From assembly GCA_033580375.1 (NCBI GenBank), contig GCA_033580375.1_4527.1: a DNA stretch of 64,000 nt. One strand, 5' to 3'. Shown here piece after piece: positions 3,075-61,000 of this stretch (within the stretch, counting starts at the first letter, position 1; every line of letters begins with the position of its first letter). The notes beneath the pieces were generated by a model, which ran no database searches, was not told the origin of the DNA, and saw nothing but the letters and a program-made list of their open reading frames with translations. The DNA comes from a phage. The position numbers and the translations under genes were made by a program.

Positions 3075-4843
3075 AACCTGAAGAAATGAAATCCATGCGT
3101 AGAAATAAGGTCATTGCCGATAATAAACCACAAAAAGTAGCTGCTGATGCAGCTACCGATTCATTAGAAGCATTGAATGACATTTCATCAAAACTAGACG
3201 ATGTCCAAGCCGCGTCTGAACTCACATCGCAAAGTGTAGAAGATAAAGGCAACGGAATTATTGAATCAATTGGAGACTTAAAGAATTCGACAGATAATAC
3301 TGCTGAAGGCACAGAGCTTATCGCAGAAGTTATTGAAAAACAAACTGAAGTCACTAAAAGTATAAATGAAGTTTCTAGTGCAATAAGCTCTAAGTTAGAC
3401 CGATTAGCTACATTATTAGAGCAAAAATTACAAACATCTACCGCTATTCAAAATACAGGAGGCACCTCTCTTGAAGTAATTGAGAACGCAATACCTGTTA
3501 AAGTGGTTGAGAATGAAACTTCTGATGAGCTGTTTAAAGCATTCCCTACACCTGAAAAGATTGATAATAAGCCAGACGAAGATTTCTTCCCAGCCCCGGT
3601 TCAAGAAAGTGCTAATTCTACTTCCGATTCTAAAGGTGGAATTAGCTTTAAATTGAGCGATAAAATTGCAATGCTCACCAAAACAGTTCAAACCGGGTTT
3701 AATAAATCAATATCAATTTCAGACAGAATTGCCGGAATGCTTTTCAAATACACTATAACGGCTGCTATTGAAGCAGCAAAAATGGCCGCACTTATTCTTG
3801 GTATTGTTATCGGTATTGATTTATTGATAGTCCATTTCAAATATTGGACAGACAAGTTCACTTCTGCCTGGGATTTATTTGATGAAAACTTTACTAAATT
3901 CTCTGATGAAGCTAAAGAGTGGGGTAAATTCTTAAGTGATATATTCACTTCTATTGACTCGATAAAACAATTGTGGGAAGCTGGAGACTGGGGTGGTTTA
4001 ACCGTTGCTATTGTCAAAGGTGTAGGAACAGCATTAATGAACTTAGGTGAACTAATTCAATTAGGAATGGCTAAACTCTCTGCGTCTATATTGCGTGCTA
4101 TAGGTTTTGGCGATACCGCAGACGAAATAGAAGGACGTGCTTTAGAAGGATTCCAAGAAACTACCGGGAACAAATTAAAGAAAGAAGACCAAGAGAAAGT
4201 CGCTAAATATCAAATGAAGCGCGACGATGGGGAATTAGGAACCGTTTCTAAAGGTCTTGATATGTTACAACGCGGCAAAACATTCGTTACTAACTGGGTT
4301 CGTGGTAATGACAATAAAGAAGAGTTTAGTACAAGCGATGAGCGTGCTGCGGAATCGGCAAAATTAAAAGAGTTACCTGAAGAGGAACGTAAAGAGGCAT
4401 ATATAAAAGCTAATGAAACTCGGGCGGCCTTAGTTAGATTTGAGGATTATATCGATAAAATCGATGTGACTAATCCAGAAAATGCTAAAAACGTCGAGAA
4501 GTCTTATGCTGATTTAAGTAAACTTATTAAAGACCCTGAACTTAATAAAACTCCTATTGTTAAAAAGGAATTAGATGCTAGATTTGAAAAGCTAAATAAT
4601 AAAATGGCTGAAGCCAAAAAAGCTCAGACAACAGTTAAGCCTGAATCTTCAACTAAATCTCCGGAAGCAAAACAAGTTCAGTCAATAGAGAAAGGACGTG
4701 CTTCTGAATCTAAACAACAGCAACCGGTAGCGACGATTAGTAACACAAATAATGTCGTCAAAAAGAATACCGTAGTCCAGAATATGACCCCTGTAACAAG
4801 TACAACGGCTCCTGGAATTTTCCATGCCACCGGTGTTAATTAA
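3071..4843 (+). CDS. 29: baseplate hub subunit / tail length determinator gp29
   Basis: 590-aa ORF, same length as T4 gp29, coiled-coil and low-complexity middle, synteny. Confidence 0.85.
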   Translation: MKPEEMKSMRRNKVIADNKPQKVAADAATDSLEALNDISSKLDDVQAASELTSQSVEDKGNGIIESIGDLKNSTDNTAEGTELIAEVIEKQTEVTKSINEVSSAISSKLDRLATLLEQKLQTSTAIQNTGGTSLEVIENAIPVKVVENETSDELFKAFPTPEKIDNKPDEDFFPAPVQESANSTSDSKGGISFKLSDKIAMLTKTVQTGFNKSISISDRIAGMLFKYTITAAIEAAKMAALILGIVIGIDLLIVHFKYWTDKFTSAWDLFDENFTKFSDEAKEWGKFLSDIFTSIDSIKQLWEAGDWGGLTVAIVKGVGTALMNLGELIQLGMAKLSASILRAIGFGDTADEIEGRALEGFQETTGNKLKKEDQEKVAKYQMKRDDGELGTVSKGLDMLQRGKTFVTNWVRGNDNKEEFSTSDERAAESAKLKELPEEERKEAYIKANETRAALVRFEDYIDKIDVTNPENAKNVEKSYADLSKLIKDPELNKTPIVKKELDARFEKLNNKMAEAKKAQTTVKPESSTKSPEAKQVQSIEKGRASESKQQQPVATISNTNNVVKKNTVVQNMTPVTSTTAPGIFHATGVN

Positions 4844-6960: not shown

Positions 6961-7254
6961 TTATTTACGGAATGAAAGGAATGCTGGTGCTCGGAACGGA
7001 GTATCATCTTTAGAGTATTTAACTAATACAACCATTGGTACCTCTGTTTCTAAATGACCTGTCACTACACCGATAAAAATTTGGTCGGTGTGCTCAGGGT
7101 CACGAAAGTTTTTAAGAGGTTCCATAGCAATATGGAATGCACCTGGGAATACTCGATTCAATTCGTCAATCACGGCTTCGTTAAAAGCATCATCCGCTGG
7201 GATAACATCTTCAACTACTAGTTCTTGACCATTAAAGCGAAGCATAGATTTCAT
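6961..7254 (-). CDS. hypothetical protein (alt-downstream small gene)
   Basis: ORF-track ORF trimmed to internal ATG (MKSMLRF...) with SD GAGGAA; the upstream 24 codons encode an early promoter instead. Confidence 0.5.
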   Translation of the reverse strand: MKSMLRFNGQELVVEDVIPADDAFNEAVIDELNRVFPGAFHIAMEPLKNFRDPEHTDQIFIGVVTGHLETEVPMVVLVKYSKDDTPFRAPAFLSFRK

Positions 7255-7284
7255 AACGTTTTCCTCATGTTGTTGATGGGATGA

Positions 7285-7313
7285 TAGTATCACACATCCA
7301 TGTGCTTGTAAAC
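7285..7313 (-). promoter_or_regulatory. T4-type early promoter
   Basis: Minus strand GTTTAC-N17-TACTAT immediately after alt stop. Confidence 0.5.
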
Positions 7314-9400
7314 TATCCTTGAACAAATTTAAATGGAACCGATTCTAAATCCATTAAAGATGCTAACAGTTTCAATCCTTTAGGTGCACTGTTTATTTCT
7401 ACGAATGAGGCAAAAGATACTGGCTCATTTGATTCGATTTCACCCGTCATAGCAACCACCTCGCCTGTTTCCATGAGAACATCACCGTCGTAAATGACTG
7501 CTTCATCCAACTGGTCTGAGGACATGACTTCGGCTTGAATAAATTTAAGGTTGGATTCTAAACCTGCACCAGTGTCAGATGACGCATCTGTAATTTTATT
7601 TATCTGCAAGAGAATGCCTCTAGGCAAAATAATTTCTTGCTCATTAGGGTGATTACTCAACTGTCCTGGATAAATCACGTTAACTTTATGGGCGCCATCA
7701 ATAGCCCATCCAACGTTAACACGGATTTGTTCTGGTGCATGCATAGCTGTTCTTACTTGACTAGGAGAAATAGTAACACCTTCGTCATTATTGTCAATGT
7801 TAAGCTCTTTGCGAACTTCTTCAGGAGCAAGTCCAAGGGCAACGTTCTCTTTAAACCCGCCGAAAATAATAGGAGCTAGTGAAGTAGAAACATAGTTTCT
7901 GAAGTAGAATACCTTATTTTTAACCATTGCTTCGTAAATAGGCATTCTGATAGACTGAGCTCTATACAACGTTAGTCCTTCAGGTAAACGGTCTCCATTT
8001 AAAAACGCCGAATCAAGACCATCAATAGCGCGTTTAACTTCATCTTCATCTGCAACATCATAAAAATCCGGTTTATAACGACCTAACAACATATTATTGA
8101 TATCGGTATACGCAGAAGAGGCATATTCACGAATAGCTCGTTTTTCAGCAACAGAGTATTGTTTAGGGTCACGATTCATTGTTATATTAAAGGTGCCTCT
8201 AGCCGATTCTCGTGCATAAGTATACATCACATTAGACAAGAACGCTGATTTACGTTGTTTCCAAGTTTTTTCAGATACTTCAGCTAAAACGTCGTCAGCC
8301 AGCTGGAAATTATCACGTCTAAAATCTTCAAACCATTCGTCTTTAATAGAGTCTGCAATTTCATTTGCAGCTTCAACAAAAGCAGCTAATGCTTTAACAG
8401 ATGTTGTTTTTTCAGTTTTAATTTTCTTAGCAAACTTTTCTAAAGTCGGCTTAATAACACTACCATAAGAAACTTCATCAGCAAATCTAAAGGATTCATC
8501 AATACGATTATAAATCTTATTTTCGATATCAGCAACTAAAGTGCCTTTTGCTGTGGACGATGCTTGGGCTAGTACGATTTCATATGCTTCAGGAAGTAAT
8601 TCGGCTGTAGCCGGGCCGCTAACTTCTTTAGCAGAATTTTCGTATTTCTGGAATAGCTCACCTTCTTGGCGATCTGCTTCTAAAGATTGACTTGCTGCAA
8701 TAGCTCGACGAGAAATTTTAGTACGAGCAATAACAGGCTTATCTTTACGTTTTTCTTCTACAGCAGCAATAGAACCAGCTATAGCCGTTTCTTTGGTGAC
8801 TTTTTCGCCAGTCTTTTTACTCACATAAACTTCACCAACATCAGAATCTACTTTCGTGTACAACTCTGTGTTAATGTTAGGGATGCCTTTAATATCTTCA
8901 ATGTTGGCATTTTTACGAACCATCATCACATATGTGTGTTTACCTGTGAATTGATACATTGCAGACAATACTTTAAAACGACCACCAGTTTTAGTAGAAA
9001 CTAAACGAGCAAGAAGAGTTTGAAGTTGTTGTCCACGTCCTTTCAATTTCTTGGTAGGGAATCGGAACAGAACTGCATCCATACGAAGAGCTTTAACCTG
9101 TTCATACACTGTATTGAAAATGGTGTTGATTGCATCAATAGGAGCAGGACCAAGGCCATTTTTCAATTCAGCGAGATTACCCTTTTCAGACAGACTCATA
9201 ATAACAACATGAGCGTATTTGTCGCCAAGTTTAACTTGTTTTACAGCGTCGCCTTCGGAAAGGTAAGAGAATAAACGAACTACGATGTTTGTATCGATAT
9301 CACCAATTTTCCAGACTTGTGGAACTTTAGCTTTAGGGTTCAAATTGATGACAGGAAGACTGCCTTCAGATTCAAACACTTCATTTAATTGTTCAGACAT
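7313..9400 (-). CDS. alt: ADP-ribosyltransferase Alt
   Basis: 695-aa ORF (T4 Alt is 682 aa), position between gene 54 and DNA ligase, SD AAGGA. Confidence 0.8.
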   Translation of the reverse strand: MSEQLNEVFESEGSLPVINLNPKAKVPQVWKIGDIDTNIVVRLFSYLSEGDAVKQVKLGDKYAHVVIMSLSEKGNLAELKNGLGPAPIDAINTIFNTVYEQVKALRMDAVLFRFPTKKLKGRGQQLQTLLARLVSTKTGGRFKVLSAMYQFTGKHTYVMMVRKNANIEDIKGIPNINTELYTKVDSDVGEVYVSKKTGEKVTKETAIAGSIAAVEEKRKDKPVIARTKISRRAIAASQSLEADRQEGELFQKYENSAKEVSGPATAELLPEAYEIVLAQASSTAKGTLVADIENKIYNRIDESFRFADEVSYGSVIKPTLEKFAKKIKTEKTTSVKALAAFVEAANEIADSIKDEWFEDFRRDNFQLADDVLAEVSEKTWKQRKSAFLSNVMYTYARESARGTFNITMNRDPKQYSVAEKRAIREYASSAYTDINNMLLGRYKPDFYDVADEDEVKRAIDGLDSAFLNGDRLPEGLTLYRAQSIRMPIYEAMVKNKVFYFRNYVSTSLAPIIFGGFKENVALGLAPEEVRKELNIDNNDEGVTISPSQVRTAMHAPEQIRVNVGWAIDGAHKVNVIYPGQLSNHPNEQEIILPRGILLQINKITDASSDTGAGLESNLKFIQAEVMSSDQLDEAVIYDGDVLMETGEVVAMTGEIESNEPVSFASFVEINSAPKGLKLLASLMDLESVPFKFVQG

Positions 9401-19860: not shown

Positions 19861-19890
19861 ATTATACTCTGCTCCCGAGAGTTTGTAAAC
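19861..19890 (-). promoter_or_regulatory. T4-type early promoter
   Basis: Minus strand GTTTAC-N18-TATAAT. Confidence 0.55.
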
Positions 19891-49450: not shown

Positions 49451-49480
49451 ATTATACTCTGCTCTCAAGAGTTTGTACAA
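49451..49480 (-). promoter_or_regulatory. T4-type early promoter for ndd
   Basis: Minus strand (T)TGTACA-N17-TATAAT. Confidence 0.45.
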
Positions 49481-57576: not shown

Positions 57577-58002
57577 TTATTTAAATTTAATTTTCTGAAG
57601 TGCATCAATTGCAGCCAAACGCCCTTGTTCACTTTTAACTGTAATGACCACATCGCCTGATATGATCACCGAACCATCAACAAATTCTATAGAGCCTTTT
57701 TTGAAACCGACAGCTGTATCTTGTTCCGGGACTTCTTCAAAGAATTTAAATTCTGCACCATAAAGCAGAATATCACCTTGCATACTATGAATAGTTCGGC
57801 CATAATCGCCTACGGCTTCTACAGCAATAACCGAAACGCCGTAACCAATCATCTCTTCCACAATAAAATCTTTGGACAATAAAGTAGTATGCAGATTAGT
57901 ATTAAGACGTTTACCAGTCGTATTAAGAATTCTCAAGAAATTATCTTCCTGTCCTTTGATAATACGGTATTTCTTGCCAATTTCAAAACCTTTAAAAGCC
58001 AT
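57577..58002 (-). CDS. hypothetical protein
   Basis: 141-aa ORF. Confidence 0.5.
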   Translation of the reverse strand: MAFKGFEIGKKYRIIKGQEDNFLRILNTTGKRLNTNLHTTLLSKDFIVEEMIGYGVSVIAVEAVGDYGRTIHSMQGDILLYGAEFKFFEEVPEQDTAVGFKKGSIEFVDGSVIISGDVVITVKSEQGRLAAIDALQKIKFK

Positions 58003-58186: not shown

Positions 58187-58597
58187 TTATTCCTTAAAAT
58201 GTGCTTTCAACATTTGATACAAAGACCATGCCTGGTCGTTATTTTCGATAGTAATCGTCATCACCGGAAATTCGGTCAATTCATCAAGTTCTCCAGAGTC
58301 TTGCTCTTCAGACGCTTGATATGGATTTCCAACTTCATCAAAAAACTCTGCTTCACTAGTAGAGAGCCAGATAAAGTTTTCATCAAGAATATCACCACCA
58401 GTGGCGTATCCAACCATGCCAGTAGATGTCACAATTTTAGTAGGTCGTCCAAGATGGTCAACATCTAATACTTTAAATGGTTCCATGCCAAGACGTCGTG
58501 CATAAATCCCATTATCAGTGTGGTTTTTAATAAACTCTTCTTGGGCACGTTTATCTTTAAATTGGTACCATGAGTTAACGCGGAATTTATTAGCCAT
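58187..58597 (-). CDS. hypothetical protein
   Basis: Track ORF begins at TTG; trimmed to ATG (MANKFRV...) that overlaps the upstream stop by 1 nt. Confidence 0.5.
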
Positions 58598-58824
58598 TAG
58601 TAAGTTTCCTTCCAATAAGTTGTACCATTTTCAGTGATTTCACGGAAGATACCATAGATAGGCATTTCATCACCGAGTTTTTCGTAAACGTAAACCACTT
58701 CAGTGTAGCATAAAAATTCAGTCCAGTTTTTCTGTACAACAACTAAATCAGGATTAAATAGAACATCTTCAAACTCATCGATGTTTGAATCAGTAGTTAC
58801 GTTTTTAATGATTTGACGTTTCAT
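58597..58824 (-). CDS. hypothetical protein
   Basis: Track ORF trimmed to ATG (MKRQIIKNV...) with strong SD AAGAGGAG. Confidence 0.45.
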
Positions 58825-58881: not shown

Positions 58882-59406
58882 TCATTTTAGCAAAATAAAA
58901 TCAACTTGTTCTGCCAATGAACGTCTGAACATTAATTGACAACTTCCGAGGATGAAATCAGGTGCTTCATAGACCGCGATGTAGTATCCTTTAGCTTTCA
59001 AGAGTTCAACATCTACCTGGTCATCAAACCATGCATAAACCGCGTCAACACTTTCAAATCCAAAATAGAACCCTTGAGCCCAATCTTCACTCAATTCAAA
59101 TGTGTGCTCAATTCTATAGTATCTTAAGATATTTTTTTCAAGGAGTTTATCTTCATTTACTGTAGGACGATTAGGGACATTATAGTTGTCGCCGTGATGG
59201 TAGAAATTACCTGAGAGTATTCCATGTTTATCAAGGAACTCCCATGTTTCTTCAGAGTTGTCGGTGCCCGACCAACCGTATGGCGAACGAGGTTCTTTAT
59301 TCCAAGAGGTTTCCCAAATTCTGACGGCTTTACCGTCTTCAATAGCAATTCCTGGTAATGATTCACGTTGAGTACAAAAACTACGTTCTACGCGGTAAAC
59401 TAACAT
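58882..59406 (-). CDS. hypothetical protein
   Basis: 174-aa ORF with SD GGAGAA and its own early promoter. Confidence 0.5.
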   Translation of the reverse strand: MLVYRVERSFCTQRESLPGIAIEDGKAVRIWETSWNKEPRSPYGWSGTDNSEETWEFLDKHGILSGNFYHHGDNYNVPNRPTVNEDKLLEKNILRYYRIEHTFELSEDWAQGFYFGFESVDAVYAWFDDQVDVELLKAKGYYIAVYEAPDFILGSCQLMFRRSLAEQVDFILLK

Positions 59407-59432: not shown

Positions 59433-59461
59433 ATAATATCAAAACCAGAGGAGAAGTAAAC
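59433..59461 (-). promoter_or_regulatory. T4-type early promoter
   Basis: Minus strand GTTTAC-N17-TATTAT. Confidence 0.5.
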
Positions 59462-59465
59462 AACT

Positions 59466-59885
59466 TTATGCGAAAGCAGCCGGGCTATATTTTTTAATTT
59501 GGAATTCAGGAACTACCATGAACTGACCAGCGAAAACGATGTTATAAAGCTTAACACCATCTTCTACCCAACGGTCGCTAATAAATCCGGCGATTTGCTT
59601 AGTTTTCCATGGCGTTCCATCGGTTGCCGCAGCAATAGTGAATTCGTGGTCTTTTTCAACAGAAACTGATCTGCATAGTCCCCATTTGAACGCTTTTTCT
59701 TCTGGTTCAATGAATTGGCTTGAGACGTAACCAATGTTGCCATCAGCATCACGAACTTTAACTTGATGTGGACTAAAGAGTCCACAACTTACAGAAAGAA
59801 CTTCAACCAACTTCCCAGCAACTTTAGAGCGAGAAGCAACAGGTACATATACGTAATCACCAATAGAGAGATTTGCAATATTCAT
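59466..59885 (-). CDS. hypothetical protein, tandem paralog 1 of 3
   Basis: 139 aa; shares N-terminal SRSKVAGKLVEV and C-terminal GFISDRWVEDGVKLYNIVFAGQF blocks with the next gene. Confidence 0.55.
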   Translation of the reverse strand: MNIANLSIGDYVYVPVASRSKVAGKLVEVLSVSCGLFSPHQVKVRDADGNIGYVSSQFIEPEEKAFKWGLCRSVSVEKDHEFTIAAATDGTPWKTKQIAGFISDRWVEDGVKLYNIVFAGQFMVVPEFQIKKYSPAAFA

Positions 59886-59894
59886 AATAATTCC

Positions 59895-60380
59895 TTAAGC
59901 TTTACGAGGAGACACATAACGAGTGATTTCGGATTCTTTAACAACTCTGAAGTCACCTAAGAATACGATATTGTATAACTTTTCACCATCTTCAACCCAT
60001 TGGTCACTAATGAAGCCACACATAGTATCAGTTTTGCTTGGATAACCGTATTCATCGATGAAGTCAAATTCTTTATCAGTCTGGAATTCAACACCTTTAC
60101 ACAAGGCCCATTTGAACTGTGCATTATGCTCTGTGGATTCAACTTTTTCTCTTGAAGCAAAAGCACTACTCACAGGCGTTTCCAAGAACTTTGCACGAAC
60201 ATAAGCAAATTTGGTTTCCTGTGTCCCAAAACTAGGAATAATACGAACTTTTACCTCAGAATCTTCATCTTTAACGCCTTCTTTAAGTTGAATACTTACA
60301 ACTTCGACCAATTTTCCTGCGGCTTTAGAACGAGATTTGTTAGATACGCGAACGATTTCACCAATAATACCAAGATTCAT
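59895..60380 (-). CDS. hypothetical protein, tandem paralog 2 of 3
   Basis: 161 aa; SRSKAAGKLVEV ... GFISDQWVEDGEKLYNIVFLGDF. Confidence 0.55.
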   Translation of the reverse strand: MNLGIIGEIVRVSNKSRSKAAGKLVEVVSIQLKEGVKDEDSEVKVRIIPSFGTQETKFAYVRAKFLETPVSSAFASREKVESTEHNAQFKWALCKGVEFQTDKEFDFIDEYGYPSKTDTMCGFISDQWVEDGEKLYNIVFLGDFRVVKESEITRYVSPRKA

Positions 60381-60412
60381 AATTTCTCTCTCTCTTTGTT
60401 TAAATTGAATTC

Positions 60413-60442
60413 ATTATACTCCGTCCATCCTTGGATGTACAA
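60413..60442 (-). promoter_or_regulatory. candidate early promoter
   Basis: Minus strand TGTACA-N17-TATAAT; shares CCAAGGATGG..GGAGTATAAT with the promoter at 60971-61000. Confidence 0.4.
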
Positions 60443-60444
60443 CA

Positions 60445-60939
60445 TTAATTAAGGATATTAACCACAGCACTACGTGGAACTACACTAAAATCACCTGCAT
60501 GAACAACGTTCAGAAGTTCAACACCGTCTTCAATCCACTGGTCAGTTACCCATCCATTTACTGGATAAGCGAACGGGCGTCGAATTGAAACATATTTACA
60601 CAGCAAATCAGTAGGCTCAATAGGCTTAATCAGAGTACCGTACATACAAGCGATATCCATATCAATACAGACGTCTTTAACGGGTTCTACTTCTTCAATC
60701 AACAGTTCAAAGTCGGTGCTTGGAAGGGCGGTAGTAGAAATTGTATCGTATGAATTTTTAATTTCTAAGAATAACCAAGGGCCTTCAGCTTGTTTGATGA
60801 AGTTAACAATAGTGAAACTATTACCTTGAGTGGCACCTAAAATTTCACAAAACTTTTCGTAAGCTCGCACTGAAGCACTGTACCAGTTGATTTGTTTTTC
60901 GTCTTTCAGGATGTAAGTAGCCGTAGTATTGATATTCAT
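60445..60939 (-). CDS. hypothetical protein, tandem paralog 3 of 3 (C-terminal domain only)
   Basis: 164 aa; C-terminal GWVTDQWIEDGVELLNVVHAGDF matches paralogs 1 and 2. Confidence 0.55.
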   Translation of the reverse strand: MNINTTATYILKDEKQINWYSASVRAYEKFCEILGATQGNSFTIVNFIKQAEGPWLFLEIKNSYDTISTTALPSTDFELLIEEVEPVKDVCIDMDIACMYGTLIKPIEPTDLLCKYVSIRRPFAYPVNGWVTDQWIEDGVELLNVVHAGDFSVVPRSAVVNILN

Positions 60940-60970
60940 AATGTTTTTCCTGTTTGGTTAAGATAGAAAG

Positions 60971-61000
60971 ATTATACTCCAACCATCCTTGGTTGTAAAC
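60971..61000 (-). promoter_or_regulatory. T4-type early promoter
   Basis: Minus strand GTTTAC-N18-TATAAT. Confidence 0.5.

Follow-up and report, generated by a model that had tools for sequence, protein, structure and literature searches.

The closest described relatives of the genes considered here are motB and motB.1 of phage T4 and their counterparts in RB69. T4 MotB is toxic on expression, binds DNA nonspecifically and copurifies with H-NS/StpA (Patterson-West et al. 2018, 2021; PMC6070864, PMC7827196). The protein alters the H-NS footprint, has a 2-fold effect on burst size and, when overexpressed, derepresses part of the H-NS regulon (PMC6070864, PMC7827196). Homologues of MotB fall into groups that share the same C-terminal domain and carry different N-terminal domains, T4 MotB.1 being one of these (Patterson-West et al. 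2021, PMC7827196). The same work suggested that one of the two genes, motB or motB.1, perhaps arose by duplication of the other (PMC7827196), and reported two motB genes and one motB.1 in RB69. The N-terminal domain of MotB.1 is an LSm-like barrel that is common to GoF and Frd.2, and T4 deleted for motB.1 showed no laboratory phenotype (Kim et al. 2025, PMC12152347). Paralogy, domain exchange and the exact three-gene arrangement described below are already known. The finding itself adds little, as family and arrangement are on record in Pfam, in PHROGs, in the RefSeq annotation and in two papers.

The window analysed is a stretch of phage DNA of 64,000 nucleotides (64 kb). Over the 5.6 kb surrounding the locus it has 96-98% DNA identity to Mosigvirus phages such as ESh27, Shf125875 and phiC120, and the annotation agrees; by this similarity the window is assigned to Mosigvirus, the RB69-like T4-type phages. 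The minus strand carries, in order, dda, dexA, C, B, A, a motB.2 homologue, cef, goF, 39.2, a goF-like ORF (57577-58002, minus strand) and the gene for the topoisomerase large subunit. Gene C (60445-60939, minus strand, 164 aa) is the motB.1 homologue, gene B (59895-60380, minus strand, 161 aa) the motB orthologue, and gene A (59466-59885, minus strand, 139 aa) a second, shorter motB copy of the RB69 ORF010c type. The deposited annotation of Shf125875 describes C as 'similar to RB51 and RB69 motB.1', B as 'motB' and A as 'RB69ORF010c, similar to motB'. A sequence-only reading of this DNA, made without database searches, had placed three minus-strand ORFs at these coordinates and had located them in the hyperplastic 39-dexA interval; the ORFs are present, and genome comparison and annotation confirm that they lie in this variable part of a T4-type genome. 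The locus is very probably the motB.1-motB-motB(ORF010c) early-gene cluster of Mosigvirus, whose SH3-like two-domain products would be linked to H-NS by homology. Directly downstream of the array lies gene D (58882-59406, minus strand), the motB.2 homologue. Despite that name it was rejected as an array member: BLASTP finds no relation to the paralogs (E 0.42), and the gene belongs to a separate PHROG.

Genes A, B and C are paralogous. The C-terminal block that the sequence-only reading had seen in all three is present as GFISDRWVEDGVKLYNIVFAGQFMVV (A), GFISDQWVEDGEKLYNIVFLGDFRVV (B) and GWVTDQWIEDGVELLNVVHAGDFSVV (C). It forms the core of a shared C-terminal barrel, GW(V/I)(T/S)DQW(V/I)EDG..L.N(V/I)V..G.F.VV. 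The wider family motif, G(W/F/Y)(V/I)(T/S)D(Q/R)W(V/I)E(D/N)G...L.N.V, occurs in all three genes, and the columns G, D, W, E, G, L, N and V are invariant across 34-43 family members. BLASTP relates A to B with an E of 1e-29 (42% over 151 aa), A to C with 5e-11 and B to C with 2e-10. An N-terminal block, SRSK(V/A)AGKLVEV, is common to A (SRSKVAGKLVEV) and B (SRSKAAGKLVEV), and the N-terminal half of C gives no alignment with A or B; both the shared block and the unrelated N-terminal half of C had been pointed out before and are borne out by alignment. A profile of the C-terminal domain, searched against the six-frame translation of the 64-kb window, recovers three copies only (E 1e-24 to 8e-36) and no further copy, the next best match having an E of 1.6.

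The guess that the family is of the MotB type proved right. Pfam PF17613 (motB), with a gathering threshold of 25 bits, is matched above that threshold by A (76.6 bits), B (179.8 bits) and C (35.7 bits, residues 84-159), and a precomputed PF17613 match is present in every homologue retrieved in a large protein search. The MotB-like phrog_1671 matches A (E 5e-50) and B, and phrog_2333 matches C (E 6e-82). Among T4 proteins, MotB is matched by B at 57% identity (E 6e-59) and by A with an E of 8e-25; C matches MotB.1 over 134 aa at 37% identity (E 4.7e-25), and was aligned with the intact 143-aa T4 form P0011. The KOW-like N-terminal domain that distinguishes MotB proper (Category 1; Patterson-West 2021) is found in the SRSKAAGKLVEV region. 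C has the features of the MotB.1 subfamily (Category 2), namely homology to T4 MotB.1 over its full length and a non-KOW N-terminal domain joined to a MotB C-terminal domain. Many phages of Mosigvirus and some of Tequatrovirus possess the 139-aa subfamily of A, and its identity over many phages is 82-98%. No remnant of gene A was detected by tblastn in the 170-bp cef-motB gap of T4, where short blastn matches lie near the promoter-like part only.

Structural models agree with the earlier suggestion of a small beta-barrel: AlphaFold2 predicts two small SH3-like barrels connected by a disordered linker. The model of C, built on a 37-sequence alignment, has a mean pLDDT of 79.9. It comprises a beta-rich N-terminal domain (residues 1-84, pLDDT 80-89), a disordered linker (85-107, pLDDT below 50) containing the DMDIACMYGTLI motif, and a C-terminal barrel of five strands (108-164, pLDDT about 90). 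In the model of B, residues 1-66 form a basic, KOW/SH3-like barrel, residues 70-86 a disordered linker, and residues 88-157 the C-terminal barrel, where pLDDT exceeds 90. A combines a KOW-like N-terminal domain with the MotB C-terminal domain, almost without a linker. By analogy with T4 MotB.1, the N-terminal barrel of C would be LSm-like, as in GoF and Frd.2, a fold family marked by a bent antiparallel beta-sheet of five strands. Profile comparison by hhalign gave probabilities below 5% for this domain against GoF, from shallow profiles of few sequences, and below 10% against GoF and the goF-like ORF at 57577-58002, again with few sequences; that ORF has a weak match to the MotB.1 PHROG (E 7e-4). 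A sequence search of the PDB with MotB returned no match at E up to 1.

Domain shuffling had been suggested for the third gene, and it is indeed a chimera, with an N-terminal half homologous to that of T4 MotB.1 (E 5e-25) and a C-terminal domain of the MotB type. In an alignment of 34 family members, at least three N-terminal arrangements precede one and the same C-terminal domain. These include (i) the MotB.1-type N-terminal domain in forms of 143-169 aa, (ii) longer forms of 177-183 and 244-252 aa, and (iii) a KOW-type N-terminal domain with a MotB.1-type C-terminal domain in 144-149-aa forms, some of them from Klebsiella and Enterobacter phages.

The length of MotB.1 differs between database records. 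In the T4 reference record the protein ends at 119 aa (...GGWVTDQWIGRWR), and the remainder of the conserved block, EDGVELLNVVHAGEYSVVPRSAVVAILN, stands in the +1 frame; because of one extra base, the annotated protein is without most of its C-terminal domain. Every resequenced T4 genome has one base fewer here, and one of them, MT984581, encodes an intact protein of 143 aa. In the RB69 reference, two single-base insertions relative to the window split motB.1 into ORFs of 132 aa and 29 aa. To judge from these comparisons, single-base differences in the old reference records account both for the RB69 '29-aa Category 3 peptide' and for a T4 MotB.1 of 119 aa, and natural MotB.1 is predicted to have a complete MotB C-terminal domain. 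Kim et al. (2025, PMC12152347) used the 13.8-kDa (119-aa) form, based on NC_000866.4, and the corrected length bears on the interpretation of the published MotB.1 assays.

Two of the genes are preceded by nearly identical promoter-like sites. The string CCAAGGATGGnnGGAGTATAAT occurs twice on the minus strand without mismatch, upstream of B (60413-60434) and upstream of C (60971-60992); no other site was found in the 64-kb window even at 3 mismatches, with 0.01 expected by chance. The early-type sigma-70 promoter of C (60971-60999, minus strand) reads TTTACA-17-TATAAT and scores 11/12 against the consensus TTTACW-N17-TAYWAT; its spacer holds the palindrome CAACCA-AGGA-TGGTTG. The promoter of B (60413-60441, minus strand), TGTACA-17-TATAAT, scores 10/12 and has a spacer of the same class, the palindrome carrying one mismatch. 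Between the two, 20 of the 22 core bases and 14 of the 17 spacer bases are alike. In ESh27 the B promoter has a perfect palindrome, CATCCA-AGGA-TGGATG, a compensatory pair change relative to the CAACCA/TGGTTG of the C promoter. Every Mosigvirus relative fetched has the C promoter conserved before motB.1. Gene A lacks a separate promoter; only 9 nt lie between the stop codon of B and its start, which is preceded by AAGGA. This short gap and the AAGGA ribosome-binding site indicate that A is probably co-transcribed with B. A third promoter-like site, TTTACT-16-TATTAT (59433-59460, minus strand), belongs to the motB.2 homologue and not to the paralog array; the TTTACTTC promoter before motB.2 is also found in T4, RB3 and Sf24, there at a different gene position. 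No MotA box (TGCTT) was seen in the array sequence. At the sequence level, the array has what marks T4-type early genes, a sigma-70-type promoter directly upstream and no MotA box. In T4 and RB3, motB has a spacer of another class (TTTACA AACTCTTGGGACCAGAG TATAAT), and motB.1 directly follows motB.2 without its own promoter. This second spacer class, ACTCT..AGAGT, recurs at distant promoters as well as at T4 and RB3 motB. It is represented in the window at 19861 and 49451, 30 kb apart, where two promoters before unrelated genes agree at 15/17 spacer positions and 37/50 positions overall.

Compared gene-wide with seven relatives, the array genes of the window have Nei-Gojobori dN/dS values of 0.16-0.27 (A), 0.18-0.28 (B) and 0.18-0.30 (C); the corresponding values are 0.02-0.15 for dexA and dda and about 0.1 for goF. 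The array genes are less constrained than the enzymes and are clearly under purifying selection gene-wide. In FL18, mar005P1 and AV112, the dS of motB is 0.56-0.80 and that of the adjacent motB.1 only 0.08-0.18. In the Tequatrovirus Sf24, the MotB.1 protein is 95% identical and DexA 69%. To judge by such differences in divergence between genes, alleles of single genes have evidently been exchanged by recombination, as far as such sequence comparisons can tell.

How the array and its paired promoters arose can be explained in different ways. One proposal, built on the sequence-only reading, is a recent tandem triplication in which each copy brought its promoter with it, diversifying selection then following from an arms race against host defences. 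The three genes are adjacent, as this proposal would have it; the match between the B and C promoters is close, with no other match to the string in the window; and the dN/dS of the array exceeds that of dexA and dda. Yet the paralogs have reached saturation at synonymous sites (pS 0.64-0.86; dS at least 1.7 or undefined), which makes the duplications old, and the joint presence of motB and motB.1 in T4, RB3, Sf24 and RB69-like phages dates duplication to before the genus split. With synonymous sites saturated, a neutral match of 20/22 promoter bases could not have survived from the gene duplication. The different spacer class of T4 and RB3 motB and the lack of an own promoter at motB.1 in these phages also count against joint inheritance, as does the promoter pair at 19861 and 49451, which is more alike and yet drives unrelated genes. 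Thus the shared string upstream of two genes stands, but the supposed joint duplication of gene and promoter does not. Diversifying selection fares no better, gene-wide dN/dS lying well below 1 in all three genes, in the purifying range. A recent triplication is accordingly very improbable; in place of a simple tandem triplication, the comparisons point to ancient duplications with module exchange, before the T4/RB69 split. Smaller still is the chance that one or more copies are decaying, non-functional duplicates, an account that can draw on the frameshifted motB.1 of the T4 and RB69 reference records, on the lack of the third copy, A, in T4, and on the T4 motB.1 deletion without laboratory phenotype (PMC12152347). 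Against decay, the window and every other relative fetched have the three ORFs intact, and dN/dS is 0.16-0.30; none of the resequenced T4 genomes shows the T4 frameshift; and the 139-aa type of A is retained across many phages at the high identity given above.

The likeliest account of the shared promoter string, with roughly an even chance of being correct, is a PeSL-like exchange of promoter cassettes, or gene conversion, between nearby early promoters, the palindromic spacer being kept by selection. It covers the promoter string only and is compatible with explaining the genes as a motB cluster. The 6-bp inverted repeat of the spacer, with its compensatory difference in ESh27, suggests that the palindrome itself is maintained. 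The recurrence of the ACTCT..AGAGT spacer class at distant promoters and at T4/RB3 motB is consistent with such exchange, as is motB.2, which carries its own TTTACTTC promoter and differs in position between T4-type and RB69-type genomes. Strong allele mosaicism (motB against motB.1 dS; Sf24 motB.1 against dexA) argues in the same direction, and PeSL shuffling is described for T4-type hyperplastic regions (PMC2839356, PMC4122927). On the other side, the stem-loop of published PeSLs is described as adjoining the promoter and not as lying inside the spacer, and plain convergence on a favoured promoter sequence could also produce the similarity. Promoter-cassette dynamics explain the shared string better than co-duplication with the genes.

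A host-takeover role had been proposed for the family, and it fits the published work on T4 MotB (PMC6070864, PMC7827196); for the anti-defence role proposed with it, no evidence was met in the literature consulted. The following model can be put forward. (i) Transcription would begin right after infection from two early promoters recognized by host sigma-70, one serving C and the other the B-A pair. (ii) B, and probably A, would act as an early nucleoid-associated protein that binds DNA without sequence preference, by analogy with T4 MotB. (iii) B (and probably A) would likewise associate with nucleoid-bound H-NS/StpA, change H-NS on DNA and modestly raise phage yield. (iv) The basic KOW domain would probably provide the DNA contact, and the shared acidic C-terminal barrel would probably be a common module for protein interaction or oligomerisation. 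(v) In C, this barrel would be joined to an N-terminal barrel of another kind, possibly directed at RNA.

The fourth step is suggested by charge. The MotB N-terminal domain has a pI of 9.7, whereas in B and C the pI of the C-terminal domain is 4.6-4.7, and C as a whole has a net charge of -10; from the basic KOW domain and the acidic C-terminal domain we infer nucleic-acid contact through the former and a protein module in the latter. Published HHpred results, which relate the C-terminal domain to the cold-shock OB family, point against this division. The DNA affinity of the window MotB may also differ from that of T4 MotB, as its overall pI is 5.6 and not 9.2. A more speculative reading, itself rather doubtful, takes the acidic C-terminal barrel as a docking or oligomerisation module and not a DNA-binding one, and the linker peptide D(M/F)D(I/V)A(C/S)MYGTL(I/V) as a movable linear motif for a second partner; this peptide lies in the disordered linker of C and before the N-terminal domain in other family members. 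Three cargoes, two KOW-type and one with an LSm-like barrel, may then be brought to one host target, for example H-NS/StpA nucleoprotein. If docking were the function, the published negative results for T4 MotB.1, obtained with the 119-aa form in which this module is missing, may not describe the natural 143-aa protein.

Comparison with the described systems shows both close agreement and local differences. B and T4 MotB, at 57% identity, are equal in length, combine a KOW-like N-terminal domain with a C-terminal barrel, and share their genomic surroundings and a position after an early promoter; they differ in pI (5.6 for B, 9.2 for T4 MotB), and the B promoter is of another spacer class. The two domains of T4 MotB recur in A, a shorter paralogue that T4 lacks. 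C and T4 MotB.1 (Category 2) align over their full length, both having a beta-rich N-terminal domain and a MotB-type C-terminal domain. The 164-aa C, however, has a linker insertion of roughly 20 residues, DMDIACMYGTLIKPIE, that is absent from the 143-aa T4 MotB.1. Gene C also has a promoter to itself, immediately behind dexA; T4 motB.1 comes after motB.2 and has none. Promoter-cassette exchange finds its published parallel in PeSL cassettes (Arbiol 2010; Comeau 2014). The likeness consists in repeated, near-identical TTTACW-N17-TAYWAT early promoters, a hyperplastic region and differences in gene order; the window differs in having the inverted repeat inside the promoter spacer, and the parallel is drawn as a resemblance, not as membership of the class. 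The nearest counterpart is the motB.1/ORF012c/motB/ORF010c cluster of RB69 (NC_004928), from the same genus, with the same gene order and about 95% DNA identity; motB.1, split in the RB69 record, is one intact 164-aa ORF in the window.

Divergence changes sharply from one gene to the next across motB (59895-60380), motB.1 (60445-60939) and dexA. When window positions 59895-60939 are compared with the relatives L004-L007, motB has a dS of 0.56-0.80 beside a dS of 0.08-0.18 for motB.1 in FL18, mar005P1 and AV112. The MotB.1 protein of the Tequatrovirus Sf24 is 95% identical to that of the window, the neighbouring dexA 69%. This mosaic points to the exchange of single-gene cassettes across genera.

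Published reference records of motB.1 differ from the window gene in reading frame. In T4 NC_000866.4 (record positions 7149-7650, or 3650-4151 of comparison sequence L001), one extra G within the most conserved motif yields a 119-aa product ending GGWVTDQWIGRWR*, and the remainder of the MotB C-terminal block continues in the +1 frame. The motB.1 stretch is 1 nt shorter in all resequenced T4 records and in RB55 and RB59; MT984581.1 (L010 190-621), the sole resequenced T4 record translated, encodes an intact 143-aa MotB.1. The MotB.1 assays in print were done with the 13.8-kDa reference form (Kim et al. 2025, PMC12152347). In RB69 NC_004928 (L009 3377-3873, against window 60445-60939), motB.1 is divided because single bases have been inserted at two places, with CCG-TTC becoming CCGTTTC and GACGG-TG becoming GACGGTTG. 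The annotated 29-aa ORF RB69p012, the 'Category 3 peptide' of Patterson-West 2021 (PMC7827196), is the motB.1 C-terminus read out of frame. For motB itself, RefSeq gives Shf125875 a 175-aa protein (L002 2896-3423), whose start lies upstream of the -10 element of the promoter. Met15 of that annotation, taken as the start of the 161-aa window protein, better suits the promoter and ribosome-binding site.

Residues 93-104 (60626-60661) of window MotB.1, in its disordered linker, form the short and conserved peptide D(M/F)D(I/V)A(C/S)MYGTL(I/V). Among the family proteins compared (P0004, P0030, P0035, P0039 and P0058), it precedes the N-terminal domain at position 4, 19 or 88; T4 MotB.1 lacks it. 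The peptide behaves like a movable linear motif.

Two near-identical minus-strand early promoters (19861-19889 and 49451-49479) lie 30 kb apart, share 37 of 50 bases and precede unrelated genes. Their sequence is TTTACA/TGTACA AACTCT.G.GAGCAGAG TATAAT GCTC, and T4 and RB3 motB are preceded by the same spacer class. Within the spacer lies an inverted repeat, ACTCT...AGAGT. The -10 element is flanked by a further repeat (GGAGC/GCTCC or GAGAGC/GCTCTC), in which the changes are compensatory.

The motB.2 homologue (58882-59406), unrelated to MotB despite its name, retains its own TTTACTTC.. promoter (59433-59460) though its genomic position varies: it occupies the gap between the second motB copy and cef in the window, versus the dexA/motB.1 gap in T4 (L001 4162-4718), RB3 and Sf24. 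The interval also holds a second paralogous pair, goF (58187-58615) and an RB69 ORF005c-type gene (57577-58002). Both match phrog_622 (1e-38 and 2e-20, respectively), and the ORF005c-type gene weakly matches the MotB.1 PHROG (E 7e-4). This pair, together with the weak match, fits the published GoF/MotB.1 LSm-like family.
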